This document shows, one piece after another, positions 6,114-62,495 of a stretch of 64,000 nt of DNA; positions within the stretch are counted from its first letter, which is position 1; the number at the start of each line of letters is the position of its first letter. Both the position numbers and the translations under genes were made by a program. The notes below the pieces were generated by a model. That model saw only the letters and a list, made by a program, of their open reading frames with translations. It had not been told where the DNA came from and searched no databases. This DNA comes from Promethearchaeota archaeon (lineage in GTDB: Archaea > Asgardarchaeota > Lokiarchaeia > Sigyniarchaeales > SOKP01): assembly GCA_019058245.1 (NCBI GenBank), contig JAHPZJ010000030.1, forward strand, positions 1 to 64,000, given 5' to 3'.

Positions 6114-7793
6114 TTAATCTTTTAACTTTTTTGCTATTGTAAATATAAATGTTGTCCCTGAACCTAATAAACTTGTAAATGTTATGCTACCTCCATGCAA
6201 TTCTACAAGCCTTTTGGTTAATGATAATCCAAGTCCAGTTCCAGGAACAGAATGTACATATGCAGAATCTACTCTTTTAAATTCCTTAAAGATTATTTTA
6301 AAATCCTTATGATCTATACCAATACCTGTATCCTTAACTTTAAAAATCCAATGATCCCATTTTTCTTGTACTTTGAGGGTGATATAACCCTCAATAGTAA
6401 ACTTAATAGCATTACTCATTAGGTTTAATAAGATTTCTTTAAATCGGATTGGATCAGCATAAATATACTTCTCTTCTTCTAACCCTTTTACCTTGACCTT
6501 AAGCTTCTTTTTATGGTAAAAAGGCTTTAGATTCGATATAACTTGTTCAACTATAGTATTCAATGAAAATTTTTGTAGGTTTAATGATATTTGTCCAGAT
6601 TCTATTTTCGAAATATTTAAGATATGTTCTATCATGTCAAATTGATGCTGAGCCGAATTTTTAATATCGTTTATAAATTCTAGCTGTTTCTTAGTTATTG
6701 TTCCATAAACTTGTTCTAAAAGTAAATCAGAAAAACCAATAATAGAATTAAGAGGAGTTCGTAATTCATGAGATATCATTGACATAAATTCTGACTTAAA
6801 TTGAGATCTTTTTAAGATCTCATTCATCAATAATTTCTGTTGATTTAAAGCATTATGCAGTTCTCGTGTTCTTCTTTTAACTTCTCTTTCCAACTTTTCT
6901 CTAAATTTATTTTGCAGATCTTCTATTTTTTTCCTTTCTGTTATATCTCTGAAAATTCCGAAGTATCCAATTATGTTATTATTCAAATCATATTTTTTCG
7001 TTATAGAAGTTTCTATTGTTATTTTTTCACCATTTTTTTTAATAATTTTAAATTCAAAAGGAATATCAGGTATTTCAGTAACATTCAAATTAGTTAATAT
7101 ATTATAACTCCCTTCATCTAGTAGACTACTCAGAGGTTTATTTATTAATTCTTCATGAGAATATCCTAAGATTTTACACAGAGAATTATTAAAAAATATT
7201 AAATTTTCATCAATATCAAATTCAAAATATGCTTCTTTTATATTATTCAGAATTTCTTGATATCTTCTTTCATGCTCATAAAGCTTTTTCCCACTTTTAT
7301 ATAATAATTCTAAGGAATTCTTTTTTTGAGAAAGACTCCATAATCTGATTTCAGGAAATATTGTAGATAGTTTCTTTAGTTCTTCCTGAGATTTATTTAA
7401 TTTTTTTTGAAGAACCTCCTTTTCACTAAAATCATGAGCAAATTGGATTATTATATTTCCATTTTGGGATTTAAGTGGAATTCCGAAACCTCGGACATAT
7501 AAATATTGACCATCTGATTTTTTTAACATGTAATCCATATATTGATTTCTTTTAACAGTTAGTTTTAAAAATTTTGTCAAGTTAATTTTTTTTGACTGAA
7601 AATTCTTTTGTTTAATTATTTGATTTAGCGTTAATGCCTGAATTTTTTTCTTATTATTATAACCTAAAGCAATAATAAAACTATGATTAACATCAATGAT
7701 TCTACCTCGCAGATCGTGGATATAGATTAAATCTAAGGAATTATTAATTAATAAATCCAATTCTGGTCCTAAATTAATCATATTGCTTGACAT
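6114..7793 (-). CDS. Cytoplasmic PAS-PAS sensor histidine kinase
   Basis: Two PAS-like segments; H-box SHELRTPL; N box NLMSNAIKF; G1 DTGIG; G2 GTGLGL. Confidence 0.93.
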   Translation of the reverse strand: MSSNMINLGPELDLLINNSLDLIYIHDLRGRIIDVNHSFIIALGYNNKKKIQALTLNQIIKQKNFQSKKINLTKFLKLTVKRNQYMDYMLKKSDGQYLYVRGFGIPLKSQNGNIIIQFAHDFSEKEVLQKKLNKSQEELKKLSTIFPEIRLWSLSQKKNSLELLYKSGKKLYEHERRYQEILNNIKEAYFEFDIDENLIFFNNSLCKILGYSHEELINKPLSSLLDEGSYNILTNLNVTEIPDIPFEFKIIKKNGEKITIETSITKKYDLNNNIIGYFGIFRDITERKKIEDLQNKFREKLEREVKRRTRELHNALNQQKLLMNEILKRSQFKSEFMSMISHELRTPLNSIIGFSDLLLEQVYGTITKKQLEFINDIKNSAQHQFDMIEHILNISKIESGQISLNLQKFSLNTIVEQVISNLKPFYHKKKLKVKVKGLEEEKYIYADPIRFKEILLNLMSNAIKFTIEGYITLKVQEKWDHWIFKVKDTGIGIDHKDFKIIFKEFKRVDSAYVHSVPGTGLGLSLTKRLVELHGGSITFTSLLGSGTTFIFTIAKKLKD

Positions 7794-23296: not shown

Positions 23297-24763
23297 GTGG
23301 AAAAGAAATCATTAGATCTTTTATTTAAACCCCGAAATGTTGTTATATTTGAAGCAAAAGAAAGATATAAGTTTTTTATTGAGGGTTTTAAAATGCAAGG
23401 ATATGATCTAGAGAAATTATATTTAATATCACCAACAGAGAGAGAAATCTTTGGAATTGAGTGTTATAAAAAGATTGATGATATACCTGATGATACAATT
23501 GATTTATTGATTTTAGCTGTTAGAAGAGATATACTTTTAAGAACTTTAGAAGAGATTACAGATATCAAGAAAATTGAATTTATACACATTTTTACTGCAG
23601 GAACAGGAGAATTTGATGAAATTGGAGCAAAGATTGAAAATCAATTGAAAAATTTTTTCGATAATCACCCTAACATAAAAGCAATAGGTCCAAATTGTAT
23701 GGGTATTTATTGTCCTAGTGGGAAAACAGCATATCTTCCTAGATTCCCACTAGATAAGGGGAATATAGGTTTGATTTATCACTCTGGTGATTTACATTCA
23801 AGAGCTATAAACTATGGATATAGTAGATATCGCCTTACATTTTCAAAAGGAGCTAGTATAGGAAATTGTGTAAGTTTGCAAGTAACCGATTTTTTAGATT
23901 ATTTCGAGAAAGATGGTGAAATTGACTTAATTAGCATTTATTTTGAAGGTTTTTCAAAATATCAAAAATCAGCAGGAAATGAATTACTTAAGAGATTAAA
24001 AAAAATGAAAAAACCAATATTATTTTTGCGTGGTGGTATGACAAAGCGCGCTCAATCTGCTGTTCAAACACATACTGGTTCCTTAGGATCAGATGAAAAG
24101 ATCTGGGGTGCAATATTTAATCAAACACCTCTAATTGAAGTAGGAAGCTGCTTAGACGAAATGATTGATTATATGTTCATTTTTGATAGTTTTTTTAAAA
24201 AATATAGAGAATTACCTTTTGAAGAACAAATCAAGTATTATCCTAAAGGAAAAAATGTCTTAGTTATTATGTGGTCAGGTGGATTAGGAATTCTTGATAC
24301 TGATACTCTAATTAGGTTAAAACTTAATTTACCTTTATTTGAAGGAAAAATTAAAGAACGATTAATGAAAGTATTCCCAATTAAAATAGGATCTCTCAAT
24401 AATCCATTAGACTTACCATGGGTTTCACGATCAGAACATTATGTTAATTTATGCAAAGCGGCGATTTCAGAAGATATTAATCTGGTAATTATGCACACAA
24501 ATGCTTTTGGTTTTGAAGATAAGGAACGATTTAAAGAATATTATGCTAATTTAAAGGAGATAAGAAAACATGTTGAATCTTTGAATAAGATTTTGATATT
24601 GATTTTATCAGAAACACCAATGAAAATTCGCAACGATTATTTTGAACTTCTTATTGATGATGGTTTTATCGTGTATCCTTCAATTGATCGGGGTGCTAAA
24701 TCATTTTTAAAATTATATGAATTTGGTAAGAAAATAGCAAGATTGCATAATAAAAATAACTAG
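23297..24763 (+). CDS. NDP-forming acyl-CoA synthetase alpha-subunit-like (CoA-binding) protein
   Basis: GPNCMG, HSG, SIGN, phospho-His motif AVQTHTGSL, SGGLG, NPLDL. Confidence 0.88.
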   Translation: MEKKSLDLLFKPRNVVIFEAKERYKFFIEGFKMQGYDLEKLYLISPTEREIFGIECYKKIDDIPDDTIDLLILAVRRDILLRTLEEITDIKKIEFIHIFTAGTGEFDEIGAKIENQLKNFFDNHPNIKAIGPNCMGIYCPSGKTAYLPRFPLDKGNIGLIYHSGDLHSRAINYGYSRYRLTFSKGASIGNCVSLQVTDFLDYFEKDGEIDLISIYFEGFSKYQKSAGNELLKRLKKMKKPILFLRGGMTKRAQSAVQTHTGSLGSDEKIWGAIFNQTPLIEVGSCLDEMIDYMFIFDSFFKKYRELPFEEQIKYYPKGKNVLVIMWSGGLGILDTDTLIRLKLNLPLFEGKIKERLMKVFPIKIGSLNNPLDLPWVSRSEHYVNLCKAAISEDINLVIMHTNAFGFEDKERFKEYYANLKEIRKHVESLNKILILILSETPMKIRNDYFELLIDDGFIVYPSIDRGAKSFLKLYEFGKKIARLHNKNN

Positions 24764-25818: not shown

Positions 25819-26018
25819 ATAAAAAGTAAAAATTATTCATAATACTGTTCAAATAATTTTAATTCATCTGAAATCCCCAATTATACCAATTATTTTATTA
25901 TTTAGAATAGAAAGATCTCCATCTAATTCATGATAAATCTCTACCATTTTTTAAATCCCCAAATATAAATATATATGGTATTTAAAAAAATCTCCTATAA
26001 GCTAAGTGGTATATTTAT

Positions 26019-26600
26019 TTATAACAATCGATTGTAATCTAATTTGTTTTTCTCTAAAACACTAATAACTAGTTCCTTAAAGATTAATTCAATATTATAA
26101 TTATCCTTAGAAGAAGTTTTATAAAAATCAGTTTCCTTATGTCTTTCTTTAAATCTTTTAATAACTAAATCATCAACCCTAGTTTTTTCATCAGCAGTTT
26201 TAACAAGATCGTTTTTTGCACCTATTATCATACGTGGTGTATGGATTTGTTCATATTCCTCTAATTTTTCATACCACCAATCTAATCTCAGTAACGTTTG
26301 AAGATCTATTAAATTAAATACCATGAATATCCCATTAGCACCATTAATATAATAGGGAAATAATTTTTTAAATTGTTCTCGTCCACCAAAATCCCAGATA
26401 CTAATTCGAACAAACGAATTCTCATCATCTACGATAATTGGAAGGTCTTTGGTATAGAACTCAATTCCAAGAGTTTCTCTAGTATTCACATCAAATGTAT
26501 TGAAACATAATCTTCTTGCAATACACGTTTTTCCTACACGCTCTTGACCAAGTACACAAATCTTAAAGATATATACAGGTTTTTCCTCGGACTTTCGCAT
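26019..26600 (-). CDS. Rab-like small GTPase
   Basis: FKICVLGQERVGKT, WDFGG, GAKND, TSSK; no C-terminal Cys. Confidence 0.92.
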   Translation of the reverse strand: MRKSEEKPVYIFKICVLGQERVGKTCIARRLCFNTFDVNTRETLGIEFYTKDLPIIVDDENSFVRISIWDFGGREQFKKLFPYYINGANGIFMVFNLIDLQTLLRLDWWYEKLEEYEQIHTPRMIIGAKNDLVKTADEKTRVDDLVIKRFKERHKETDFYKTSSKDNYNIELIFKELVISVLEKNKLDYNRLL

Positions 26601-27019
26601 GATTTGGTAAGACTCCTAATTCTTGATATAATTTAAGTAATAGGTATTTTTAATTTTTTATAATTGAATTCTTATAATTAAAAAATACTTAACTTAATTA
26701 TTAAAAATAAAAGTTTGGATTTATAAGTTTTGAGTATATAAAAATAAATCTAAAACAAATAAACTATGAAATAAGAAGTATTTTTACCAGACTATACACC
26801 AATTATTACTACTGATCCAATTTAAATCTGTTTATAAGATTCAAATTCAAAAAGAGAAATCAATAAGATTAAAAAAAGAAACAGAAAAATATCTCAAAAT
26901 TTAAAATTTTATAAACTTCTTTTTTGATATATTAATTATATAGGTTCTGGACAGTTCTTTTACTTGAGAAAAAAGAAACCTGCTTTAAAAAGTTAATAAT
27001 CTAAAAGTTCTATGTTTAA

Positions 27020-28105
27020 CTACAAGTTTTCCAAAGAGTTTGTTGTTTTCTTATCATACACTTTTAAATTCAATTTTCCTTTAGTAGGAATTTCTATATA
27101 AGTAGGTTGCATGTGCTGCCAAGATCCACTGTTTAATATTTCTACTTTCAGATTATTTATGTTTCCATATGATATTCCACTATGATGAGTGTGTCCATAT
27201 ATAACATGGTTAATTTTTGAAAGGTCATACTTATCATTCTCTAAAAACGCTTTTATTTCTTCAAAATAATAATCAGGATGACTCGCACGTTCCCATTTAG
27301 TCATTATACGCATGTTTGTTTTAATTAAGTTAAATTCTAAATTACTTAATCCTGAAAATAATCTGTCCATAGTTTCTTTAGGCATTTTTTTTAGAACAAC
27401 TAATTCTTTTTTCATCTGATCAAGTTTAATTGGTTTAATCTTTCTTTTCTCTTTAACTACCTCATTCCAAAAATAATCATAAGTTTCTTTTACCTCAAAT
27501 TTATTATTAGAGATTAAAGATTTCCATATGGGTCCTACAAAAAACCTATATAAATCACTATCAAATTGATAACCATGGGTTAGAAAACATTTATACTCCA
27601 TATCCAAATCTAGACCTTTAACTTTTATTTTATTGATTGGTTTATTTTCAATTTGTTCTCGCGAGTCGTATAGTGAAAGCATAGCACCCTCATCCCTATT
27701 TTTTAATAATAAATATTGACAATATAAGTCTTTATCAAATAATTCACTGAAACTACTATTCTTAAATTTGATTAAATACTTCAGTTCCCGACGCTTAAAT
27801 TTCTCGTCGTAATCTCCAGTAACAGGAATCTCATGATTCCCCAAAACAATAACGAGGTTTATTGATTTTTTAATATCTAGCAAAAGACTAAAAATTTTTT
27901 GCACTTTTTCTCTTTTTAAAAGTCTCTCAGGAACGTCCATACATAAATCGATAAAATCCCCTAATATTACAAGAGTTTGTAATTCATCTCCGAAATCTCC
28001 AGTGAGAACGTTTTGTAAAAATTGAATAAACAAATCTCTTTCACAATCCAAGGACCCTAAGTGAATATCTGAGACTACTAAAATCTTAGGTTTTGTTTCG
28101 ATCAT
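27020..28105 (-). CDS. Calcineurin-like metallophosphoesterase (LpxH-like)
   Basis: SDIHLG, GDFID, GNHE, THG, GHTH, NSGSW. Confidence 0.9.
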   Translation of the reverse strand: MIETKPKILVVSDIHLGSLDCERDLFIQFLQNVLTGDFGDELQTLVILGDFIDLCMDVPERLLKREKVQKIFSLLLDIKKSINLVIVLGNHEIPVTGDYDEKFKRRELKYLIKFKNSSFSELFDKDLYCQYLLLKNRDEGAMLSLYDSREQIENKPINKIKVKGLDLDMEYKCFLTHGYQFDSDLYRFFVGPIWKSLISNNKFEVKETYDYFWNEVVKEKRKIKPIKLDQMKKELVVLKKMPKETMDRLFSGLSNLEFNLIKTNMRIMTKWERASHPDYYFEEIKAFLENDKYDLSKINHVIYGHTHHSGISYGNINNLKVEILNSGSWQHMQPTYIEIPTKGKLNLKVYDKKTTNSLENL

Positions 28106-28614
28106 TTTCTATCATCTATTTTTTACGTAAATTAATAATATATCATTATAATAGAATAAAATAAAATTATTAAAGAGAATAGATACTGTTTATATCGGCA
28201 AAAAATTTTTTTAAATCCTCAAGATAAATTATTATAAATTCAACTAAAGTGCGCTTTATGAGTATCATTTTATAAATAATCTTGATGATAAATACATTAA
28301 TCTTTTATCTCATATATTACATATTGGAAAGCGGATAAAGATGTTAATAATTATTATGGGTTTTGTAAGATTGTTCTAATATAATCTAGTCATTTGAAAT
28401 CAAAAATTGATCATTTTCTCTTAATTGAATTCACTAGTAAAAAATTTATCAATTATTTTAATCAATTTTTTTTGTCGACCATATTTGATTGATCATATAC
28501 ATCGGATTAGTAATGATCGACCAACACATTTAAATATAAGTAATACTAATTAAAATTTAAATACACTCTAAAAAAAGAATATAAAATAAGAAAAATTAAG
28601 TGGAGGAATAAAAA

Positions 28615-28821
28615 ATGGCTGCATTTGCATGGAGTCCTTTACGGGCTCTAATGAAGAAAGCCGGAGCAGAAATTGTAAGTCGAGCTGCAGTTGACAAATT
28701 AATGGATTATTTAGAAGAATATGCCAAGAGTTTAACTGGCTGTGCGCTTGATATTGCTAAACACTCCGGTAGAAAGAAAGTAACCGCTGCAGATATGAAA
28801 ATTGCTATCGGTTTAATATAA
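28615..28821 (+). CDS. Archaeal histone (HMf-type, no tail)
   Basis: LMKKAGAEIVS..A, AKHSGRKKV...D histone fold; GGAGG SD. Confidence 0.95.
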   Translation: MAAFAWSPLRALMKKAGAEIVSRAAVDKLMDYLEEYAKSLTGCALDIAKHSGRKKVTAADMKIAIGLI

Positions 28822-28890
28822 ACAGTTTTTAAGTTACTTTCTCTTATTAATAAATTTTTTTTTTATTTTTTTCTTCTAATTTATTATAAT

Positions 28891-29445
28891 TCATAATTCC
28901 CATGAAAGCTTGAGTTTAGTCCATTTGTCATTAATCCATGATTTATTTAAAAAGGAAAAATTAACTTTTTTGTTAATACATAATTCAATAAAGCGTTGTG
29001 CATATCCTGCTGCTATAAGGTACCAATTTTTCCAATCTCGAGGAAAATCTTTATAAGTAAATACTAATTCGTTATCAGAGACGAATTCTGGAAGTATTTC
29101 ACCAAAATTATGGACCATTTTATGAAAACGTGAATATTTTTCAGTAGCAAGTTTAATATCTCCCTCAATAACGGAAAATTTGTAGACTGTTGTGAACCAA
29201 CGGTTTGCCTCATCTCGTCCCCATTGGTGTAAAATTTTAGGATCATTTTTTCCTTCAAAAAGACAAATAGCATTATATATTTCCCTGTATTGTTCTAAAG
29301 GATACCAACTTGCTACGAGAATTCTTTTATTAAGAAGTTCTTTTGCTTTGTCTGAAAGAATCTCATTATATTTACCCCTTAAATTAGGATTTGCTTTAAT
29401 TGACTTCACTATTGTTACGAATATTGTTCCTTTTACTTCTTTCAA
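28891..29445 (-). CDS. 184-aa array paralog 8 (H-NOX/V4R-like, DUF2378-related)
   Basis: VKG, SWYP, WG, RFH, NFGE, NKSW shared with the other seven copies; TTG start. Confidence 0.85.
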   Translation of the reverse strand: MKEVKGTIFVTIVKSIKANPNLRGKYNEILSDKAKELLNKRILVASWYPLEQYREIYNAICLFEGKNDPKILHQWGRDEANRWFTTVYKFSVIEGDIKLATEKYSRFHKMVHNFGEILPEFVSDNELVFTYKDFPRDWKNWYLIAAGYAQRFIELCINKKVNFSFLNKSWINDKWTKLKLSWEL

Positions 29446-29646
29446 ATAAATCGCCTAATTAATTAAATTAATTTTTAATAAAATATTTCTTGATTAAATT
29501 GACCTAAACTAGCTTAACCTAATAAGAAAGTTTAAAAAATTCTTTAAAATTATAGCGTAACTCTGATTATAAAAACTTTAACTAAACGTTAATTTTCCTA
29601 ATATTATAGTAAAAAATATTCAATGGCTTTTTTAAATAAGAAACTG

Positions 29647-29661
29647 AAAAAAAAAAAAAAA
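29647..29661 (-). terminator. T15 tract, probable archaeal oligo(dT) terminator
   Basis: 15 consecutive A on + strand, about 90 bp downstream of the stop at 29752. Confidence 0.5.
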
Positions 29662-29751
29662 TTTTTAACATGATCTATTAAATCTAATAAAGATAAATTT
29701 GATTTAATAATAGTTATAAGTTTTAGTTTACAGATTGAAATAATAGATTAG

Positions 29752-30306
29752 TTATGAACCCCAAGAAAACCTTGTTTTCGTCCAACCTCCCCCTTCCCAT
29801 GACTTATTTTGAAAGGTATATTCTGGTTTTTTACCAATACATAATTCAATAAATGATAATGCGTATCCTAATGAGGTGTAATAGTAATTTTTCCAATCGC
29901 GAGGCAAATCTATATAACTAAATTCTAATTCATTATCAGAGGGGGATTCTACTTTAACTTCACCAAAATTAAAAACTTTTTTATGAAAGCGTTTATATCT
30001 CTCAACAGCTAGTTGAAGATCACCCTTAACAATAGTAGATTGGTAAATTGTTGTAAACCAATGTTTTCCTTCTTCTATTCCCCATCCGATTAAAGTTTTT
30101 GGATCATTTTTTGCTCCTAAAAAACATAATGTATCAAATAATTCTCTATAATCTTCTAAAGGATACCATGACGCATTTAAAATTCTTCTCTCAAGAAATT
30201 CTTTTGCTCTATTTGATAGTTTCCTATTATATTCCGCTCTTTTATTATGGTTTACTTTTATTGACTTCACAATCGTTATCAATAATGTTCCTTTTACTTG
30301 TTTCAC
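29752..30306 (-). CDS. 184-aa array paralog 7 (H-NOX/V4R-like)
   Basis: Same motifs; GTG start; only 34 bp from paralog 6. Confidence 0.85.
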   Translation of the reverse strand: MKQVKGTLLITIVKSIKVNHNKRAEYNRKLSNRAKEFLERRILNASWYPLEDYRELFDTLCFLGAKNDPKTLIGWGIEEGKHWFTTIYQSTIVKGDLQLAVERYKRFHKKVFNFGEVKVESPSDNELEFSYIDLPRDWKNYYYTSLGYALSFIELCIGKKPEYTFQNKSWEGGGWTKTRFSWGS

Positions 30307-30340
30307 ATAAATTCACTTCCTTATCGAAATTATTTTAAAT

Positions 30341-30895
30341 TCAAGAAGACCATGAAAATTTAACAGTAGTCCAACCCTGATTTTTCCATGATTTATTTAG
30401 GTAAACGTAGTCTATTTGTTTATCAAGACACATTTCTATAAACGCAATTGCCCATCCTACAGCTGTATGATACCAATTTTCCCATTCACGAGGCATATCA
30501 GTATAAGTAAATTTTACTTCGTTATCAGAGATAATTTCTGGTATGATTTCTCCAACAGTCGTAGTTCTTTTGTGAAATCGTATATATCTCTCAGCAGCAA
30601 GTTGGATATCGTTTTTAATAACTGTAGACTGATATGTTGATGAAAATGTACGTTTTCCATCCATTTCTCCCCATCCGACAATAGTTTTTGGATCATTTCT
30701 AGCTTCTACAAAACATAAAGCATCAAAGCATTCTCGATATAATTCAAAAGGATACCATGATGCTATCAGAATTCTTTGCTTAAGAAATTCTTTTGCATTG
30801 TCTGAAAGTATCTTGTTATATTCACTTCTTTTTTGATGGTTCGCTTTAATAGACTTTACAGTCATGATTAATACCGATCCTTTTACTTTTTTCAA
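30341..30895 (-). CDS. 184-aa array paralog 6 (H-NOX/V4R-like)
   Basis: Same motifs, with TTTVGE replacing NFGE; TTG start; most similar to paralog 1. Confidence 0.85.
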   Translation of the reverse strand: MKKVKGSVLIMTVKSIKANHQKRSEYNKILSDNAKEFLKQRILIASWYPFELYRECFDALCFVEARNDPKTIVGWGEMDGKRTFSSTYQSTVIKNDIQLAAERYIRFHKRTTTVGEIIPEIISDNEVKFTYTDMPREWENWYHTAVGWAIAFIEMCLDKQIDYVYLNKSWKNQGWTTVKFSWSS

Positions 30896-31047
30896 ATCAA
30901 TCCCCTTCTTAACTTAAATTAATTATAATAACCCTAAGCCTAAAAAGAACTATAGATAAACCTTTAAGATTATCTAATAAGGCTGCTGATTGTAAAATCT
31001 CTGTTCATTTCTGATTTCTTTGATTTTCTAACTATACTTCAAATATT

Positions 31048-31602
31048 TTAGGATCCCCATGAAAGCTTGGCTGTGGTCCATCCTCCGTTTAACCATGATT
31101 TATTTAAGAATGTGTGCTTTATTTTTTTTTCAATGCATAATTCTATAAACACTTTTGCCCACCCCACAGCTGTATAATACCAATTTTTCCAATCAGGAGG
31201 AATATCTATCCATGTTACTTCTATCTCGGTTCCAGTGTTGAAGCTTGGTACAATTTTACCAAAATTAAACAACATATTATGAAAGCGAGTATATTTCTCA
31301 ATGGCGAGTTGTAGATCTCCTTTGAAAACCGTAGATCTGTATATCGTAGTCAACCAACGTTTTCCTTCCATAAAACCCCACTCTACCAATGTTTCTGGAT
31401 TATTGTTTGCTTCAATTAAACATAAAGCATCAAAACATTCTCTATAAGATTCCAATGGATACCATGATGCCGTCAGAATTCTTCGTTCAAGAAATTCTTT
31501 AGCGCTATTTGAAAGTATCTGATCATATTTCTCTCTTTTACTATGGTTTACTTTAATTGATTTTACAATCATTAAAACCATCGTTCCTTTTACTTGCTTC
31601 AC
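31048..31602 (-). CDS. 184-aa array paralog 5 (H-NOX/V4R-like)
   Basis: Same motifs; GTG start. Confidence 0.85.
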   Translation of the reverse strand: MKQVKGTMVLMIVKSIKVNHSKREKYDQILSNSAKEFLERRILTASWYPLESYRECFDALCLIEANNNPETLVEWGFMEGKRWLTTIYRSTVFKGDLQLAIEKYTRFHNMLFNFGKIVPSFNTGTEIEVTWIDIPPDWKNWYYTAVGWAKVFIELCIEKKIKHTFLNKSWLNGGWTTAKLSWGS

Positions 31603-31965
31603 ATAAATCCCCTTATTTTTCCTAATTAAACCTAGTTTAACTAATTAAAAATTACTTAATCTGATCTAAGCTAGTTGTCCTAATCTAAACTTTCTTAAGA
31701 TTATCCAAATTAACTTAGCCAATAAAGTAACTTTTAAGAGTTTTTCAAAAATCTAGTGTTTATTTGACTATAAAAATGTTTACATATAGATATAATCCGT
31801 GTTATATCAACATAATTAAGTTATAGCCTCTTTTGTCTATGAATAATAAGTATTATTTGTTTTTAGAATTATTATATGATTTAAAGCATCTCCAAGAAAT
31901 AAGTTCATAATTCATAGATTGAAGCCTTTAGTTCTAAATCTTGAATTTTTTAAGGAGTCCATGAA
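31585..31965 (+). repeat. 381-bp direct repeat, copy 1 (array spacer plus gene ends)
   Basis: Matches 32487..32867 with 3 mismatches seen; period 902 bp. Confidence 0.95.
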
Positions 31966-32504
31966 AACTGGATTTTTGTCCCACCATCCTGTATCCATGA
32001 TTTATTTAAGAATGTATAATCTACTTCTTTGTCAATACATAATTTAATAAATGTTATTACCCATCCTACTGATGATTGATACCAATTTTCCCAATCAAGA
32101 GGAAGATCTTTGTAAGATAATTCTATCTTATTATCAGAGATTACATTTGGTATAATTTCACCGAAATTAAAAAATCTTCTGTGTAAACGCTGGTATTTCT
32201 CTATAGCCATTTCAATGTCTCCCTTAAGGATAATAGCCTGGTAAAGTGTCGTAAGCCAACGATATGCTTCCCTTATAGCCCATTTAAGAACAATTTCCTG
32301 ATTATTTCGTGCTTCAACATAACATATTGCGTCAAAACATTCTCTATAATCCTCTAAAGGATACCATGATCCCGTCAGTATTCTTTTTTGAAGAAATTCT
32401 TTTGCTCGGTCTGATAGTATTCTGTCATATTCACCCCATCCTTTAGAGCTTGTTTTGATTGATTTTACAATCGTTATTATTAACGATCCTTTTACTTGCT
32501 TCAC
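31950..32504 (-). CDS. 184-aa array paralog 4 (H-NOX/V4R-like)
   Basis: Same motifs (RLH variant); GTG start; flanked by the direct repeats. Confidence 0.85.
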   Translation of the reverse strand: MKQVKGSLIITIVKSIKTSSKGWGEYDRILSDRAKEFLQKRILTGSWYPLEDYRECFDAICYVEARNNQEIVLKWAIREAYRWLTTLYQAIILKGDIEMAIEKYQRLHRRFFNFGEIIPNVISDNKIELSYKDLPLDWENWYQSSVGWVITFIKLCIDKEVDYTFLNKSWIQDGGTKIQFSWTP

Positions 32505-32867
32505 ATAAATCCCCTTATTTTTCCTAATTAAACCTAGTTTAACTAATTAAAAATTACTTAATCTGATCTAAGCTAGTTGTCCTAATCTAAACTTTCTTAA
32601 GATTATCCAAATTAACTTAGCCAATAAAGTAACTTTTAAGAGTTTTTCAAAAATCTAGTGTTTATTTGACTATAAAAATGTTTACATATAGATATAATCC
32701 GTGTTATATCAACATAATTAAGTTATAGCCTCTTTTGTCTATGAATAATAAGTATTATTTGTTTTTAGAATTATTACATGATTTAAAGCATCTCCAAGAA
32801 ATAAGTCCATAATTCATAGATTGAAGCCTTTAGTTCTAAATCTTGAATTTTTCAAGGAGTCCATGAA
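32487..32867 (+). repeat. 381-bp direct repeat, copy 2
   Basis: Matches 31585..31965. Confidence 0.95.
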
Positions 32868-33406
32868 TATTTGATTTTAGTCCAACCTTCTCTTTCCCAT
32901 GATTTATTAAGGAAGACATAATCGGGTCTTTTACCAGTACATAATTCAATAAATACTATACCATACCCTATTGTTACATTATAATAATTTTGCCAATCAC
33001 GAGGCATGTCTACAAAAGTCATATGTAGTTCTCTATCAGAGATGAATTCTGTAACTATTTCTCCAAAATTAAAAACTCTTCTGTGAAAACGTGAATATTT
33101 CTCAAAAGCCATTTTAATATCTTCCTTATCAACAGTGGAGTGGTAAATCGTTGTAAGTAAACGTTCTGATCCATTTATACCCCATTGAACCAAATCTGAT
33201 GGATTATTTCGTGCTTCAACAAAGCATAAAGTATCATATAATTCCCGATACTCTTTAAAAGGATACCATGATCCCATCAGAATTCGTTGTTGTAGAAATT
33301 CTTTTGCCTTGTCTGAAAGTCTCTCATTATATGACTTCAATCCTTTAGGACTAGTTTTAATTGCCTTTACAAGCGTTATAGTAATTGCTCCTTTCACTTG
33401 TTTCAA
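32852..33406 (-). CDS. 184-aa array paralog 3 (H-NOX/V4R-like)
   Basis: Same motifs; TTG start. Confidence 0.85.
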   Translation of the reverse strand: MKQVKGAITITLVKAIKTSPKGLKSYNERLSDKAKEFLQQRILMGSWYPFKEYRELYDTLCFVEARNNPSDLVQWGINGSERLLTTIYHSTVDKEDIKMAFEKYSRFHRRVFNFGEIVTEFISDRELHMTFVDMPRDWQNYYNVTIGYGIVFIELCTGKRPDYVFLNKSWEREGWTKIKYSWTP

Positions 33407-33687
33407 ATTAATCTCCTTACCTAGCTTAAATTATTCTATACATTTTTTACCTAATATGAAGATTTAGAGAATCTTCCAAAATTATAGTAAAAGATGGATT
33501 ATTTAAGTATATGTAAATCATTAATTTTCGTATTATTTTAGCTTAAAAAATTTTTTGATTTCTTCTTTTATCAGTAATGAAGAAAATTGTTTTTAGCACT
33601 ATAAAATGATTTAGAATATATCTTAAAGGATAGTGTGTTCTTATCCGATTGGAGCCTTCATTTCTAATATATAGGTTCATATACTTT

Positions 33688-34242
33688 TCAAGGAGTCCAT
33701 GAAAGCTTGATTTTAGTCCAGCCTTCTCTTTCCCATGATTTATTAAGGAAGATATAATTGGGTTTTTTGTTAATAGTAGATTCGACAAATGAAATTACCC
33801 ACCCCATTGCTATGTAATAATAATTTGACCAATCACGAGGAAGATCTATATAAGTAAATTCTATCTCTGTATCAGAGACAAATTTTGCTTTAATTTCACC
33901 AAAATTAAAAACTAGTCTGTGAAAACGCGTATATTGTGTTGTAAGTGCTTGAAGATTTCCTTTTTCAATAATAGATTTGTAAATGGTTGAAAGCCAAACT
34001 TTTGACTCGCCTAATCCCCATCCTGTTAAAGTTTTTGGATCATTTTTTGCTTCAATTAAACATAAAGCATCAAAACATTCTCTATATGCATCATAAGGAT
34101 ACCATGATCCCGCAAGAATCCTTCGATTAAGTAAATCTTTTGCTTTATCTGAGAGAATCTGGTTATATGGTCCCAATCCTTTAGGACTTGTTTTAATATT
34201 CTTTATAATCGTTACTGCCATTGATCCTTTTACTTGTTTCAA
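33688..34242 (-). CDS. 184-aa array paralog 2 (H-NOX/V4R-like)
   Basis: Same motifs; TTG start. Confidence 0.85.
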   Translation of the reverse strand: MKQVKGSMAVTIIKNIKTSPKGLGPYNQILSDKAKDLLNRRILAGSWYPYDAYRECFDALCLIEAKNDPKTLTGWGLGESKVWLSTIYKSIIEKGNLQALTTQYTRFHRLVFNFGEIKAKFVSDTEIEFTYIDLPRDWSNYYYIAMGWVISFVESTINKKPNYIFLNKSWEREGWTKIKLSWTP

Positions 34243-34497
34243 ATAAATCCCCTTAGATAGAATATTGAAAAATAATATTCTTTTTGAAGAGTTCTACAAA
34301 AATATATGCAAATTAAGATATAAAAAGTTTTATCACAGTATTAATTTCATTTCATTTTAATGGATGATATTTTAGATATCTTTGTCAATTTATAAAAAAT
34401 AGAATATTATTTGAGATATATCGAGAATAATATGAAGATAAACTTGTTTTAATAACAGTTGCAAGTCTTAATTTTAACGAATAGAATTTTCAATTTG

Positions 34498-35052
34498 TTA
34501 TGAATTCCAATAGTATTTAACTATGGTCCAACCCTCGTTTTTCCATGATTTATTTAAGTATTCATAATTTACTTCTTTATCAAGACACATTCCTATAAAT
34601 ACGATTGCCCACCCTATAGCTGTATGATACCAATTTTCCCATTCTCGATCCATATTTGTATACGTAAATTTTACTTCGTTATCACAGATAAATTCTGGCA
34701 TAATTTCACCAAAATTCATAGCCCTTCTGTGAAATCGTATATATCTCTCAACTGCAGATTCGATATCTTCTTTAATAACTGAAGACTGATATATTGATGA
34801 AAATGTTCTTTTTCCTTCCATCATACCCCATTGAACTAAGATTTTTGGATCATTTTTTGCTTCTATAAAACATAAAGCATTATAACATTCTTTATAATCT
34901 TCAAAAGGATACCATGCTGCGCTTAGAATTCGTTGTTTAAGAAATTCTTTTGCTTTATCTGAAAGTAACCTGTCATATTCACTTCTTTTTTGATGATTTG
35001 CTTTAATGGACTTTACAATTGTTAATATTGTCGCTCCTTTTATTTTTTCCAA
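34498..35052 (-). CDS. 184-aa array paralog 1 (H-NOX/V4R-like)
   Basis: Same motifs; TTG start. Confidence 0.85.
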   Translation of the reverse strand: MEKIKGATILTIVKSIKANHQKRSEYDRLLSDKAKEFLKQRILSAAWYPFEDYKECYNALCFIEAKNDPKILVQWGMMEGKRTFSSIYQSSVIKEDIESAVERYIRFHRRAMNFGEIMPEFICDNEVKFTYTNMDREWENWYHTAIGWAIVFIGMCLDKEVNYEYLNKSWKNEGWTIVKYYWNS

Positions 35053-35291
35053 ATAAATCCCCTTCTTAACTTAAATTGCTTTGTAATAAATTAACCTAAA
35101 CTTACTTTTTCCAATAAGAAAGTCTAGTGAGTTTTTCAAAATTATAATATAAAATTATTTATATAAACTTTTTTTTAAACTCAAAATTTCGTGTTAATTC
35201 AACATAACAAACTAAAACGCTTTTGGGTAAATATTAGGATTTCTTATTTATTAATAGAATAGAAATAAATTTTGGATTCTAATTTTTTGGA

Positions 35292-35876
35292 CTAAAAAGA
35301 TTTTTCTGAATATAAATTGTTTAAATGTGTTATCCATTCCATTCCAAGATTTTCTAGATGAGATATGAAATTTAATGAACTTAATTTTTTAATATCTTGA
35401 AACTCATTTTTATATTCTTCATAAAGTTCTATAAAATATTTATGTATTAAATTTTCAAACGATTTAATATGAATATATGGATTTAGGAAGAATATAACAG
35501 TAAAATTATCTAAATCAAAAATAGAATGAAATTTGATATTAGAGCCCTTAAGATTAATACAGGGCACATCTTGAATATTAATTTCTTCTGAAAATCTTTC
35601 TAAGGCACTTATAAACATTGGAATGAGTTCTATATTAAAGCATTCACTTTTTGATGGATCTTTCATATTCTTTTTAAGATAAAATTCTAAAGCTCCCTTA
35701 TGACTCTCAAATAATGCAATTGTTTTTCCTTCTTTATCTGATAAGATACACCCAATAAACGGGGGTGGAGAAAAATCATAAATACTTTTAAAACTGAAGT
35801 CCTTTTTACTCTGCTGATTGTCTAATTCTAAGAAAGCATTTAATGTCATTTTTTTATTCTCACTATCTTTATCCAA
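35292..35876 (-). CDS. Hypothetical protein, probable roadblock/longin-like fold
   Basis: GCILSDKEGKTI...LIPMFISALERFSEEI pattern (beta-beta-alpha), followed by beta strands and a helix. Confidence 0.55.
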   Translation of the reverse strand: MDKDSENKKMTLNAFLELDNQQSKKDFSFKSIYDFSPPPFIGCILSDKEGKTIALFESHKGALEFYLKKNMKDPSKSECFNIELIPMFISALERFSEEINIQDVPCINLKGSNIKFHSIFDLDNFTVIFFLNPYIHIKSFENLIHKYFIELYEEYKNEFQDIKKLSSLNFISHLENLGMEWITHLNNLYSEKSF

Positions 35877-36057
35877 TTAGAAGAATTATTTTGTATATAA
35901 ATAGATAACAAAAAAAAGTATTTTGTGATTTTGATATAAAATAACATCTTTTTGTGTACAAAAAAACATTATGATTTCTTACCTTAATACTATAGAATTA
36001 TTACTAAATCTTCTTACTTATGGATTTTAAATATATTTATAAAATTAAATTAAAATT

Positions 36058-36240
36058 ATGTTGGAAAATATATATTGTGATAAATGCGGGCATCCTATGA
36101 AGGGTGATGTTATTCATAAAGAAGATAATAAAGATTGTACTCATTATTACTGTTCTAAATGTGGATTTAATTATGAATCGGGATTTCGGTATAATGCATT
36201 AATGAAACAATACATTAAATACATACATTTTCATTCGTAA
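36058..36240 (+). CDS. Small zinc-ribbon protein
   Basis: CDKCG...CSKCG. Confidence 0.6.
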   Translation: MLENIYCDKCGHPMKGDVIHKEDNKDCTHYYCSKCGFNYESGFRYNALMKQYIKYIHFHS

Positions 36241-36438
36241 TTAAGTACTTAGGACATGTACTAAGACGAAATCCTATTAAAAATTGATTGATATTAATTT
36301 TATATCTTTTGCGGTTTGGGTTAAAATAAACATAAATTTTAGTATTGTGAAAATTGTGTGAGTTATATTAAAATTTATGATTTATACCAATATTTAACGT
36401 AAATACTTAATATACTAAATTCTCAATAATAAAATTCG

Positions 36439-36624
36439 ATGAGAAATAGTGTTTCAATTGAGGAAATTAATTTAAAAAAACCATTAAAAGAAAATGAAAC
36501 ATGTTTCTTTTATTCTATGGGAGAATGCCTTCATGTTAAGAGGATTTCTGATAAATGTGTTGTATTAAATTGTAAGTTATATAAATCTATGTATCCAATT
36601 AAAAAGAGATCCAATAACAAATAG
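36439..36624 (+). CDS. Small Cys-rich hypothetical protein
   Basis: Four Cys in 61 aa; ATG start with AT-rich upstream region. Confidence 0.45.
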   Translation: MRNSVSIEEINLKKPLKENETCFFYSMGECLHVKRISDKCVVLNCKLYKSMYPIKKRSNNK

Positions 36625-36774
36625 ATAAAATCTTGCTATTTACAATTTTATCATCGCTTTTAATAAATTAAATGAAAAGTAATCATATTCATATTTCATT
36701 AAGTTTATTATATACATTTTTTTTAAGCTTTTGATTAAAAAAAGAAATAATAATCCCAAAACCCATGCAAGGTC

Positions 36775-36811
36775 GTCATTGAATGTCTCATTTTTTTCAC
36801 ATTCATTTCAT
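36775..36811 (-). promoter_or_regulatory. Eukaryote-like SECIS element in the 3' UTR of the selenoprotein gene
   Basis: 5'-AUGAA-A-UGAAUGU-[GAAAAAAAUGAG]-ACAUUCA-A-UGAC-3': AUGA/GA core, 7-bp perfect stem, A-rich loop; starts 2 nt after the stop codon. Confidence 0.8.
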
Positions 36812-36813
36812 TC

Positions 36814-37338
36814 TTATTTGGGATTTATAATATATTTATCAATCAGAATGATCATTGCACCTACAGAAGGCCTATCGGTTTTATCTCTTCCTACATATTT
36901 CCAAATTATTTTTCTGTTTTTGTCAAGGAGGAATTTGCTTGGTATTGCTTGTTTTACTTTTAGTTTTCCCCAACCTTCAGCAAACCAATACACATTATAA
37001 TCTTTAGCGATTTTTGCTCCACGATCTGAAATCATATCTATAGGAAATTTATTTTCTTCCTTGAATTTTTTTAGTAGTCCAAGAGAATCAGTAGCTATTG
37101 AAATAATCTTAATATTTCTTTTCTCAAATTCATGAAATTGCTTTGTTAAACGCTCTAATTCTTCCTTTCAGTAGCTTCACCACGTCCCCCGAAAAAAATC
37201 AATCAATACTCCATTATGAATTTTAAGTAATTCATCTAAATCCACTGGTTTTCCGTATATATCAAAAGATTTTATTAGTGGTCCTTGTGAATTCAGTGGT
37301 AATCCTTTTGGTCTTGTAGTACTATTATCAGTCGTCAT
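36814..37338 (-). CDS. Peroxiredoxin-like (AhpC/TSA, thioredoxin fold) selenoprotein with UxxU motif, 174 aa
   Basis: Continuous frame from ATG 37338: DFFRGTW-TGA-SY-TGA-KEEL, with both TGA at the CxxC positions; then IATD, FPIDMISD, AIPSKFLLD, DRP. Confidence 0.9.
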
Positions 37339-37464
37339 TTTATTAATAATTCTAAATATAATTCCAATGAAATTTTTTTATATTGACTAACAAAATTAGT
37401 AATTTTAAAGATTTGTTTTTCAAAAATTAGCAATAATAAAATAGATTATTATCTTTATTAAAAA

Positions 37465-37989
37465 CTAGTGTGAATACTTTTCAAAAAGAATTTCTGTCAT
37501 TACATTAAAAGCTTTCTCGACATTCTCTCCTGTTTTAGAAGATAATTCTACAAAAGAAGCAAGATTGTATTTTTTTGCGGCTAATATTCCATCATCTCGC
37601 GATACTGCACGGAAATCATGCAAATCTACTTTCGAACCAATTAACATTATAGGTATTTCTCCTGCATGTTCTCTTATTACTTGAGTCCAATCAGGTAAAT
37701 GATCTAATGATGTTTGATTAGTGATATCGTATAGGAAAAATGCCCCATTTGCACCTTTACTATATTGAGAAAGTAAAAAGCGAAATCGTTCTTCTCCACC
37801 AAAATCCCATATTTGTAATTTGACTTTCTTATCCTTGAAGGAGGTGGTCTTACTATAAAAATCTACTCCAATTGTTAATTTGAGGTCTTCCATAAAATAT
37901 CCAGAGATATATCTCATAGTAAGGGATGTCTTTCCTACAGATGCATCACCAAGCATCATAATTTTAAATGTATAATCGTAATTCGTCAT
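37465..37989 (-). CDS. Rab-like small GTPase
   Basis: FKIMMLGDASVGKT, TIGVDF, KLQIWDFGGEERFR, GSKVD, SSKTG. Confidence 0.95.
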   Translation of the reverse strand: MTNYDYTFKIMMLGDASVGKTSLTMRYISGYFMEDLKLTIGVDFYSKTTSFKDKKVKLQIWDFGGEERFRFLLSQYSKGANGAFFLYDITNQTSLDHLPDWTQVIREHAGEIPIMLIGSKVDLHDFRAVSRDDGILAAKKYNLASFVELSSKTGENVEKAFNVMTEILFEKYSH

Positions 37990-38121
37990 TATATTCTTTT
38001 CAAGTTTAAAATTTATAATAATAATATAGGATAATCCTAATTTAATTTTATAATATTATTATCTCCAATATTAATTATTTTTTGTATATTTAAAATTAAT
38101 ATTTTCATTATAAAGTAAAAG

Positions 38122-59380: not shown

Positions 59381-61171
59381 TTGATTAAAACCAAAGATAA
59401 TGTTTGGATTTTCACATTTGAATATGCGGGGATAGTGAAAGTTGGAGGTCTTGGAGAAGTACCCGCAAATCAAGCTAAAAATTTAGCTAATGATTATGAA
59501 ATCACAGTATTTATTCCTTCACATGGTCAATTGCAGAACTTAGAAAAATCATATAGTGTGGAAAAACTCCTTTTTAATTGTGTGGGACTAATAAATCCTT
59601 CTGAATTTGGAATAAATGAACCAGAGACTAGTTATAATATTTCCTTTTACAAGATAAGAATTAATAATGTGAATATAATTTTATTACACGGAGAAAATCC
59701 ATTTACTTCTAGATATATTGATGATAAAATCGTTTATAATCCAGATACACTTAGTGGAAAAATTTGTCTTTTTAGTATAGGTATGCGGTGTTATATTGAT
59801 TTTTTAATTGATAATCGCAGAGAAGAACTACCTGATATAATACACATCCATGATTATCATGCTGTGATAGCTTTTTTTTGCATAAAACAAAGATTATCAA
59901 AAAGTGGCTTAGACGTAGCTTCTTTAATTACTATCCATTTATTAACTTGGCCAAGATATCCAATTGAATTTTATAGTGCATGTGGATTAGATCATACTCC
60001 TATAACTATAAATTTGAAAGAAGGACTTCAAGCATTAACAATATATGAAATATTTTCGATTTGTGAAAAAAAAAGCGAAATCTATCAACAGCCTACAGTA
60101 GAGATGATAGGGGCATTTATAAGTGATTTGGTTACTACTGTAAGCCAGTCATATTTAAAATCAGATATAATTCCTAATTGTGGTAAAGATTTGATTGAAT
60201 TTAAATCAAATTTTATATGGGATGGATGTGATTGGGATTATAATGAAATCCTCCAACAGGTATTAAAAAATCATGAACAAGAAATGAAACATGTCTTACA
60301 TTTATCACTTGAAAAAGAACTTACATTGAATGACATTAAAGAATATTTGTTAACCTATAAGTTATCTCATTTGAATAAAAGTCCATTAATTCAATCAGAA
60401 AAAGTTCTAAAAGTCATTAATGAGATTTCAGATGAGAATAAATTTACGAGAAATGGATATATCAAATCCTTTAATCAATCTGGTCCATTAGTAATTACAA
60501 CTGGAAGAATTTCTCCCCAAAAAGGATTTGAAACAATTCTAGAAGCTATACCAAAGGTCATTGATGCAATTCCTGATGCTAAGTTCTTATTTCTCATATT
60601 GCCTACTGATTATAGCTTAAATGAAATTAAGGTTTATGCAGATTATGTTAAGAGATATCCAGATAATTTAAGGATAATCTATGGTGTAGCTACGGATATA
60701 TTTCATCTTGCACATATTTCAGCTGATGTTTATTGTGCAATGTCCAGATGGGAACCTTTTGGTATTATTGCTTTAGAAGCTATGGCTGTAAAATTACCAG
60801 TTATTGCCACAAATGTGGGCGGATTTCAAGAAACTATCATAGATATTAGAAACTTTCCTGAAATTGGTACAGGGATTTTAATTGAGAAAGAAAACCCCGT
60901 TCAATTTGCTGAAGCATTAATTTCTCTCTTTAAATTAAAGGAGATTTCTGAAAAAGTTAAAGAAAAAGAAAAGATTTATGAAGTTGAAAATTTTCGCTTA
61001 GTAAATCAGATTCCTGATAAAATACTTGAATCTCTTGTTCTTTTGGATCCTAATTATTATAATAAAGTTAGAGAAAACTGTCATAAAAGAGTAGAAAATA
61101 ATTTTAGATGGAATATAGTCTCTAAGAAACTAATTGACTTATACCTAATGATAAAAAATCTACGGTTATAG
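59381..61171 (+). CDS. glgA: Glycogen/starch synthase (GT5)
   Basis: KVGGLG, HIHDYH, TTVSQSY, GR...QKG, SRWEPFG...LEAM. Confidence 0.88.
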   Translation: MIKTKDNVWIFTFEYAGIVKVGGLGEVPANQAKNLANDYEITVFIPSHGQLQNLEKSYSVEKLLFNCVGLINPSEFGINEPETSYNISFYKIRINNVNIILLHGENPFTSRYIDDKIVYNPDTLSGKICLFSIGMRCYIDFLIDNRREELPDIIHIHDYHAVIAFFCIKQRLSKSGLDVASLITIHLLTWPRYPIEFYSACGLDHTPITINLKEGLQALTIYEIFSICEKKSEIYQQPTVEMIGAFISDLVTTVSQSYLKSDIIPNCGKDLIEFKSNFIWDGCDWDYNEILQQVLKNHEQEMKHVLHLSLEKELTLNDIKEYLLTYKLSHLNKSPLIQSEKVLKVINEISDENKFTRNGYIKSFNQSGPLVITTGRISPQKGFETILEAIPKVIDAIPDAKFLFLILPTDYSLNEIKVYADYVKRYPDNLRIIYGVATDIFHLAHISADVYCAMSRWEPFGIIALEAMAVKLPVIATNVGGFQETIIDIRNFPEIGTGILIEKENPVQFAEALISLFKLKEISEKVKEKEKIYEVENFRLVNQIPDKILESLVLLDPNYYNKVRENCHKRVENNFRWNIVSKKLIDLYLMIKNLRL

Positions 61172-61192
61172 AATATAAAATGGGTTGAGTTA

Positions 61193-62362: not shown

Positions 62363-62495
62363 TTATTGAATTTTGCATAATTTTGTTTTTTATTCAGCAA
62401 TTAGCATCTTAATATACACCTTTGTAGAAAATTAAATAAATCTGACAATATTTTAGAGACTACTTTAAACAAATTTATAGTAGGATAAAGAAAGA

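Follow-up and report, generated by a model that had tools for sequence, protein, structure and literature searches.

The window, that is, the whole stretch of 64,000 nt that was analysed from a Lokiarchaeia (Promethearchaeota) genome, carries eight co-oriented minus-strand ORFs that all code for proteins of exactly 184 aa. Copy 8 (34498-35052) is transcribed first, followed by copy 7 (33688-34242), copy 6 (32852-33406), copy 5 (31950-32504), copy 4 (31048-31602), copy 3 (30341-30895), copy 2 (29752-30306) and, last, copy 1 (28891-29445). Their start codons are TTG (copies 1, 3, 6, 7 and 8) or GTG (copies 2, 4 and 5), each found behind a GGGAT-like ribosome-binding site. The proteins align without gaps and have diverged to pairwise identities of 46-71% (65-81% at the nucleotide level), copy 3 being the closest paralog of copy 8 (71%). 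The first-pass annotation had described eight co-oriented, diverged genes of this length whose products align without gaps, and its estimate of 53% amino acid identity between copies 4 and 5 was reproduced. Chance likeness of the copies is excluded because tblastn of one against another gives E-values of 1e-60 or lower and similar arrays are present in other genomes. K5, G6, W47-Y48-P49, C61, W75, Y88, H108, G147 and N167-K-S-W170 are invariant in the eight copies, as listed earlier; C156 is to be removed from that list (T in copy 7). From copy 1 to copy 8, residue 131 reads YYYWYFYY and residue 136 reads RRRPLRRR.

The array is flanked by an archaeal histone gene (28615-28821, plus strand), convergent with copy 1, and by a minus-strand gene (35292-35876) coding for a Promethearchaeota-specific protein of 194 aa with a weak Roadblock/longin lead (Atlas score 0.85). 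Two Ras-family (Rab-like) GTPases are encoded nearby (26019-26600 and 37465-37989). The flanks are the same in G024, G226, G008 and L001. Orthologs were identified for copy 1 (91%, G226), copy 7 (86-88% amino acid identity, G024 and L001), copy 5 (82%, G024) and copy 6 (77%, G226). No signalling gene lies beside the array, gene neighbourhoods are not conserved among relatives, and no adjacent or fused effector was found at any Lokiarchaeia locus examined. The family is present in 8 of 61 relatives and in 26 of 400 genomes of the phylum; arrays of 3-11 copies recur patchily. Gene order is shuffled among the arrays of relatives, broken copies are found in G226 and G038, and contig C20 carries a deletion remnant. 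In agreement with the first-pass annotation, no published description of such an array was found.

Homologous promoter-like blocks precede seven of the eight copies. The block of copy 8 (35124-35199, minus strand) features an ACACGAA motif, an A-rich BRE-like run and the TATA-like box TTTATATA (35167-35160), with TTTTGAAAA about 25 nt downstream as candidate start site. The TATA-like box is TTTTTATA upstream of copy 7 (34319-34326) and copy 1 (29568-29575), a variant upstream of copy 6 (33500-33507) and the degenerate TTTTACAA, inside a homologous block, upstream of copy 3 (30990-30997), all on the minus strand. Copies 3 and 2 are probably co-transcribed, since they are separated by only 34 nt and copy 2 has no TATA block of its own upstream. 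The boxes of copies 5 (32678-32671) and 4 (31776-31769) are found within two 366-nt tracts, 32487-32852 and 31585-31950, each composed of the spacer and the first codons of the respective gene. These tracts are near-identical, with two mismatches (31875 and 31905), and the orthologous spacers of G024 are only 71% alike. The twin tracts likely result from a recent gene conversion or unequal crossover.

The AF2 model of copy 4 (pLDDT 96.9) is two-lobed with a full N-terminal lobe. Its top matches in Foldseek and VIA searches are H-NOX proteins (Z 13.9 and 13.4; Foldseek E 2.5e-6), matched over the whole chain (residues 4-184 on 1-180), followed by V4R, VirS, DmpR and TRAPPC3 at Z ~10-11. As modelled, the array proteins thus carry the full-length, two-lobed H-NOX fold of seven helices and four strands, in line with the likeness first proposed. 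In the Pfam PF07700 search no copy scored above cut-off, nor did any other protein of the genome. H108 aligns with the proximal His H102/H103 on helix alpha-F (hhalign probability 95.7), the position assigned to it previously; among 84 Lokiarchaeia relatives it is kept in 59 and substituted in 25, a 10-copy sister array having F or I. The proposed resemblance of Y131-x-D-x-x-R136 to YxSxR stands for its Tyr, which aligns with the first Tyr of the motif. It fails for the Ser, which is D/N in the copies (position 133) and Ser in 0/84 relatives, and for R136, which a four-residue insertion places out of register, so that the Arg equivalent is position 139 (K/E/S/Q). The P115/P116 loop of H-NOX, which follows alpha-F, packs on the haem; six residues are deleted there and FNFG is found instead. 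Both glycines of the hinge, which has a signalling role in H-NOX (PMC8196705), are conserved: G76 in 7/8 copies (A in copy 5) and 79/84 relatives, G147 in all copies and 83/84 relatives. Distal Tyr140 forms with Trp9 and Asn74 the triad of O2-binding H-NOX of the Caldanaerobacter type (PMC7356049), which is missing here, the respective equivalents being positions 144 (I/T/S/V), 12 (I/T/L) and 79 (E/D/G). The W/Y141-Y142 pair had been placed near the distal Tyr; this assignment is not supported, as the equivalent is 144 and Y142 falls on a zinc-Cys position. The zinc site (So C139/C164/C172; MopR C155/C181/C189) is likewise missing, with Cys in 0/84 sequences at columns 142, 165, 168 and 176.

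The nearest sequence relatives are bacterial DUF2378/TIGR02265-like proteins; DUF2378 has been called exclusive to myxobacteria (PMC9257966). The PF09536 and TIGR02265 profiles match none of the eight copies. The link noted at first reading is nevertheless real: it runs through intermediate sequences, 30 of 138 aligned homologs matching both the DUF2378 (PF09536) and TIGR02265 models (best E ~1e-9), and is also seen in the source annotations of close bacterial relatives (TIGR02265 or DUF2378) and in the closest Atlas models, which are Myxococcota clusters (TM 0.85-0.87). More distant relatives are fused to Ser/Thr kinase, receiver, PilZ or chemoreceptor domains. G147, W148, F152 and Y142 align with G160, Y161, Y165 and C155 of MopR, whose Y165 forms a wall of the phenol pocket (PMC9556785); at positions 148 and 152, the four H-NOX controls carry I/M/L and I/F/V. 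The MopR ligand is anchored by a His and an aromatic residue (10.1101/2023.07.11.548514). Equivalence of H108/Y131 to MopR H106/W134 is not shown by the alignment, whose N-terminal part is unreliable. The array proteins are best read as an unnamed subfamily of the H-NOX/V4R superfamily linked to DUF2378/TIGR02265.

Codon comparison indicates that the orthologs are under purifying selection (dN/dS 0.19-0.52) and that the paralogs are old (dS 0.45-1.1), yet all eight frames are intact. A nearly neutral array, in which one redundant gene is maintained by recombination, would accord with the conversion tract, the shuffled order and the broken copies of relatives, but is highly improbable given these intact frames, the ortholog dN/dS and the fixation of pocket columns within ortholog groups. 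Between ortholog groups, hydrophobic pocket columns differ by 0.47 and other hydrophobic columns by 0.36; within groups the values are 0.11 and 0.13 (permutation p ~0.007, with few and related ortholog groups). The pocket columns are H-NOX haem contacts, picked after the alignment had been seen. By this comparison the pocket positions are copy-specific, different between paralogs and nearly fixed within orthologs, which agrees with the per-copy variation suggested earlier. Summed pocket side-chain volumes did not separate array proteins from H-NOX.

No HemB, HemC or ferrochelatase was detected in 16 genomes bearing the family, whereas all three are present in 3/4 Asgard genomes with canonical H-NOX. 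Receptors for small organic molecules are likelier than gas sensors because most haem-gripping residues and detectable haem synthesis genes are lacking. The best explanation, to which we give about an even chance, is that the array is a bank of small-ligand receptors that carry no haem and act in trans by way of the H-NOX-like hinge. These soluble, stand-alone receptors would bind small organic, likely hydrophobic or aromatic molecules. The ligand would enter the inter-lobe cleft, lined by W/T/L83, Y88, Y104, F107, W/Y148 and F152, with H108 and Y/W/F131 as its anchors. The lobes may then rotate about G76/G147 and expose a new surface, read by a partner that, by analogy to stand-alone H-NOX/HnoK pairs, would most plausibly be one of the many histidine kinases of the genome (28 HATPase_c matches). 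Every copy would have a ligand of its own, and unequal recombination between the conserved ends of the genes would add, shuffle and delete copies. Of the gas/ligand sensor repertoire first proposed, ligand sensing is thus retained as the best reading, and gas sensing becomes a minority view in light of the motifs, the loss of H108 from entire sister arrays and the lack of detectable haem synthesis.

Co-occurrence of H108 and Y/W131 in 53/84 relatives fits haem binding too and counts against the haem-free reading. The proteins could be non-canonical haem proteins: scavenged haem, or another tetrapyrrole, would be coordinated by H108, with Y131 contributing to the grip on a propionate in the absence of the Ser/Arg clamp. 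This is unlikely; within it, NO/CO sensors, as first proposed, are quite unlikely, and low-affinity sensors or chaperones of haem in an auxotroph are very unlikely. The His at the proximal position in every copy and the rank of H-NOX as best structural match speak for haem binding, and a tree in which the His clade joins canonical H-NOX is not rejected by the AU test (p 0.3). Of 135 genomes of the taxonomic family, 43 have the haem enzyme KatG but only one has HemB, which suggests scavenging. However, carriers do not have KatG significantly more often than the rest (7/14 vs 36/121, p 0.14), it was not found in the genome that the window comes from (76% complete), and no de novo haem pathway was detected. 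The Ser133 absence, out-of-register Arg and deleted Pro loop are also adverse, as are the acidic residue at 133, the usually acidic one at 79 and W/Y at distal position 148; the F/I108 array shows that the family persists without the His. It is unlikely that an Asgard lineage auxotrophic for haem acquired an H-NOX/DUF2378-like protein without haem, restored its His and propionate Tyr and expanded it into an array of tuned, non-canonical sensors of gas or haem that use scavenged haem.

Binding proteins without signalling output (carriers, buffers or decoys for hydrophobic metabolites, cofactors or hostile small molecules) are fairly improbable as well. Their patchy birth-and-death arrays would mirror shifting chemical or conflict pressure, which suits the distribution, the broken copies and remnant, the effector-free loci and the cavities of TRAPPC3/V4R folds that hold hydrophobic ligands (PMC10933270); strong hinge-glycine conservation points rather to a moving switch, and distant relatives have signalling fusions. 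There is a slim chance that the proteins are TRAPPC3/Bet3-like adaptors working with the adjoining Roadblock/longin-like gene and the two GTPases, given the shared fold (Z 10.3-10.7) and the flanks shared with G024, G226, G008 and L001. TRAPPC3, however, matches only residues ~46-184, the H-NOX match including the N-terminal lobe, and the longin-like neighbour is lacking at most family loci. Because both small GTPases and longins are plentiful in these genomes (PMC10933270), such neighbours are expected by chance.

The H-NOX/V4R/Bet3 superfamily spans the gas and phenol sensors of bacteria as well as the soluble guanylate cyclase and TRAPP of eukaryotes. The array represents an Asgard branch that lacks annotation, in which the H-NOX architecture and hinge are complete but the pocket is rebuilt. 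Its repertoires reach 11 paralogs, and most of the paralogs have a promoter-like block to themselves; paralog arrays in themselves are ordinary. Eight small soluble pocket variants offer a comparative test of the ligands of haem-free H-NOX folds, including the long-unexplained DUF2378, and could show which chemistry Lokiarchaeia sense from microbial partners. Should the copies prove to bind haem, the YxSxR rule of haem binding by H-NOX proteins would have to be revised, and the gas or haem sensor reading would mean that relatives of the eukaryote ancestor sense haem without YxSxR, through a bank of many receptors.

The array proteins resemble H-NOX/HNOB proteins (Shewanella oneidensis, Nostoc, Caldanaerobacter, sGC beta1) in fold, length, KG start, soluble stand-alone form, alpha-F His, first YxSxR Tyr and both hinge glycines. 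They differ in the absence of the YxSxR Ser and in-register Arg, Pro loop, W9/N74/Y140, zinc cysteines and an adjacent kinase or cyclase, in their bulky W/Y148, and in standing 3-11 copies in tandem, in lineages for which no haem synthesis was detected. V4R/XylR-type aromatic sensors (MopR, DmpR, PoxR) and VirS share the superfamily fold (Z 9.6-10.7); they form part of larger proteins, joined to a sigma54 ATPase or an AraC regulator, and MopR-type domains bind zinc, whereas the array proteins stand alone, have no zinc site and carry an H-NOX-type N-terminal lobe. Asgard TRAPPC3/V4R proteins (PDB 7yh2; Z 10.5) share superfamily and host and have an internal cavity proposed for ligand binding (PMC10933270), but are shorter zinc-binding homodimers without the lobe that the array proteins keep, and no arrays of them are described. 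The KG, WYP and hinge-Gly signature and paralog expansion are common to the array and to the myxobacterial paralogous family DUF2378/TIGR02265 (PF09536). Many of the more distant bacterial relatives keep zinc-type cysteines, which the Asgard clade lacks, and bacterial relatives have mostly W, F or R at position 108, where the array copies have His.

The eight open reading frames of the array (28891-35052, minus strand) are co-oriented, code for exactly 184 amino acids each and align without gaps, as described in the first-pass annotation. Their products share 46-71% identity (65-81% at the nucleotide level), and all eight start with TTG or GTG preceded by a GGGAT-like site. The residues listed there as invariant are so with the exception of C156, replaced by T in copy 7 (33688-34242). 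Close homologs are annotated as hypothetical proteins from Promethearchaeota archaeon, which makes the host Lokiarchaeia-like; the completeness of the window's genome is 76%. Neither single copies nor the eight-copy profile matched Pfam, NCBIfam or PDB sequences. A profile search yielded 272 relatives. Among the 138 that were aligned, 30 match DUF2378/TIGR02265, 14 HNOB and 9 V4R, which substantiates the suspected resemblance to DUF2378/TIGR02265 as a link; the function of that family is not known (PMC9257966). H-NOX was reached only by the 138-sequence profile, with a weak match (E 0.03-0.07). No longer, fused form turned up when such proteins were looked for, although this counts for little, and Rfam gave no match within 26000-38000. 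Hydropathy over 19 residues peaks at ~1, so membrane anchoring was dismissed.

The array proteins have the H-NOX fold that had been proposed for them. H-NOX domains account for each of the 34 best Foldseek matches (lowest E 2.5e-6) of the AlphaFold2 model of copy 4 (31048-31602; pLDDT 96.9). The three best matches in a wide structure search are the Shewanella, Nostoc and Kordia H-NOX (Z 13.9, 13.4 and 12.5; residues 4-184), followed at Z 10-11 by YslB, sGC, TRAPP, VirS, BcsD, V4R and DmpR. The nearest predicted structures belong to unnamed Myxococcota clusters (TM 0.85-0.87).

In H-NOX proteins the proximal His ligates the iron and the YxSxR motif grips the haem propionates (PMC8196705). The haem DETERMINANTS comparison was a profile-profile alignment with canonical H-NOX genes taken from other Asgard genomes (probability 95.7, E 1e-8). 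H108 pairs with H103 of the Asgard H-NOX and H102 of Caldanaerobacter, in agreement with its assignment to the proximal position; it is present in 59 of the 84 full-length Lokiarchaeia members, and the 10-copy array of the related genome G195 has F/I there. The reading of Y131-x-D-x-x-R136 as YxSxR stands only for Y131, which pairs with the Tyr. The Ser position is occupied by D/N133 and, because a four-residue insertion follows it, the Arg equivalent is residue 139 (K/E/S/Q) and not R136. Ser133 and a relaxed YxSxR motif are both found in 0/84 full-length Lokiarchaeia members, and the six residues bearing the conserved Pro loop are deleted. Equivalents of the O2-binding triad W9/N74/Y140 (PMC7356049) are positions 12 (I/T/L), 79 (E/D/G) and 144 (I/T/S/V), so the distal Tyr corresponds to position 144 and not to W/Y141-Y142: Y142 aligns with a zinc Cys (So C139, MopR C155). 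No zinc cysteine is left at the equivalent positions.

That the proteins bind scavenged haem in a non-canonical way, to sense either gas or haem itself, appears unlikely. Within the host family f1, HemB is encoded in 1/135 genomes and catalase-peroxidase (KatG), a haem enzyme, in 43/135; these archaea look like haem auxotrophs, and some of them probably scavenge their haem. The haem reading is weakened by the absence of synthesis genes: HemB, HemC and ferrochelatase are all missing from the 16 genomes examined that bear the family, of which several are 94-100% complete, whereas 3/4 Asgard genomes with canonical H-NOX encode all three; related genomes in this comparison are not independent. KatG is not significantly enriched in carriers of the array family (7/14 versus 36/121, p 0.14). 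Canonical H-NOX genes above the Pfam cut-off occur in 6/301 genomes; the four from other Asgard genome bins (L059-L062) have zinc cysteines as well as the proximal His, and the full YxSxR is present in three of them.

The hinge glycines are kept (G76 in 79/84 and G147 in 83/84 Lokiarchaeia members). Hhalign comparison to MopR/XylR domains is reliable for the C-terminal third alone. MopR Y161 and Y165, the latter a wall of the phenol pocket (PMC9556785), align with W/Y148 and F152 of the array proteins. Phenol is anchored in MopR by H106 and W134 (10.1101/2023.07.11.548514); H108 and Y/W131 lie in similar secondary-structure elements and might be their equivalents. Summed pocket side-chain volumes do not separate array proteins from H-NOX. 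The most likely reading, to which we give an even chance, is that each copy is a haem-free receptor with a ligand-driven hinge switch read in trans: a small organic ligand would enter the interlobe pocket, the lobes would rotate about the hinge glycines, and the conformational change would be sensed by a partner. Regulation of kinases and cyclases in trans is a role of stand-alone H-NOX proteins (PMC8846402). Distant relatives of the array proteins are fused to Ser/Thr kinase, receiver, PilZ or chemoreceptor domains, or occur doubled or tripled within one chain.

No kinase, cyclase or chemoreceptor flanks the Lokiarchaeia loci examined, and the gene contexts of bacterial relatives have no common neighbour. 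The genome has 28 HATPase_c matches, one of them a PAS-HisKA-HATPase histidine kinase encoded at 6114-7793, ~21 kb from the array, which is one candidate partner among many. That the proteins are carriers or decoys devoid of signalling output is improbable. A role as adaptors of TRAPP-like type is very unlikely: the array is flanked by a histone gene, two genes for Rab-like GTPases and one with a Roadblock/longin-like lead, but these flanks are missing from most other family loci. The last of them, at 35292-35876, encodes a Promethearchaeota-specific protein of 194 aa, whose Roadblock/longin lead is weak (Atlas 0.85); this gene also flanks the locus in four related genomes or loci (G024, G226, G008, L001).

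Distribution of the family is patchy (8/61 relatives and 26/400 genomes of the phylum, weak matches counted). Besides singletons, arrays are found in L001 (11 copies), G024 (7), L004 (4), G226 (4), G195 (6 and 10), G193 (6) and G038 (about 8, some broken). The order of the genes differs from genome to genome, and G226 has a frameshifted copy. A second, more distant H-NOX/DUF2378-like array of four copies, with W at the proximal-His position, lies in another genome of the genus (G036, L079:1704-4934). A homologous upstream block precedes 7/8 window copies, with an A-rich run, a TATA-like box and TTTTGAAAA ~25 nt on; it is degenerate before copy 3 (30341-30895) and missing before copy 2 (29752-30306; 34-nt gap). 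An ACACGAA motif often lies further upstream in the block. Within the spacers (29446-35291) it precedes the TATA-like box by ~25 nt, a position shared by many array genes in four genomes, and it is possibly a regulator site. A promoter-matrix scan, circular for the array itself, detected no convincing site elsewhere, hence no regulon; a sigma-70 and terminator scan, of a type ill-suited to archaea, remained at chance level.

The tracts 31585-31950 and 32487-32852, each a spacer plus first codons, differ by two mismatches in 366 bases, whereas the genes that they join are only 53-55% identical and the orthologous G024 spacers 71% alike. Given this contrast in sequence, conversion or unequal crossover is likely to have taken place recently, perhaps via the conserved gene ends. 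An in-frame internal-deletion remnant of the family, ~15 N-terminal codons fused to the last 38, is present on contig C20 of genome G000 (L028:6500-6665, about 24500-24665 of the contig), and G016 has a similar C-terminal remnant. The array is a birth-and-death repertoire.

Its copies are under selection. An ortholog from another genome groups with 7/8 window copies; dN/dS of orthologs is 0.19-0.52 and paralog dS 0.45-1.1. A neutral array is highly improbable. Between ortholog groups, hydrophobic pocket columns differ by 0.47 and other hydrophobic columns by 0.36; within groups the values are 0.11 and 0.13 (p ~0.007). This is supportive of copy-specific pockets, though not decisively, as the columns were picked after the alignment had been viewed. 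In ML trees the His108 clade is nested inside His-lacking, largely bacterial relatives. Its kinship with canonical H-NOX is not rejected by the AU test (p 0.3), so the nesting does not prove that the His was regained.

Elsewhere in the window, 36814-37338 (minus strand), with TGA read as Sec, codes for a predicted 174-aa redoxin/AhpC-like protein that lacks Cys and has a W-U-S-Y-U motif, its two Sec residues coming from TGA codons 54 and 57. The 662-aa protein of 1040-3028 combines an N-terminal DUF7347 domain with a partial match to NrdD (anaerobic ribonucleotide reductase). Two adjacent plus-strand ORFs of 389 aa each (59381-63665), downstream of a 596-aa ORF, are possibly another tandem duplication.

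No description of the family or of such arrays was found in the literature, covered incompletely for subscription papers, nor does the Asgard TRAPPC3/V4R study (PMC10933270) appear to cover the subfamily. The array proteins lie outside HNOB, to which they do not conform in YxSxR, Pro loop or score, and are members neither of the zinc V4R proteins nor of TRAPPC3. They fall below the DUF2378 family score and are linked to DUF2378/TIGR02265 all the same, forming an unnamed Asgard subfamily whose proteins probably work like an H-NOX switch bearing a V4R-like pocket for organic ligands.
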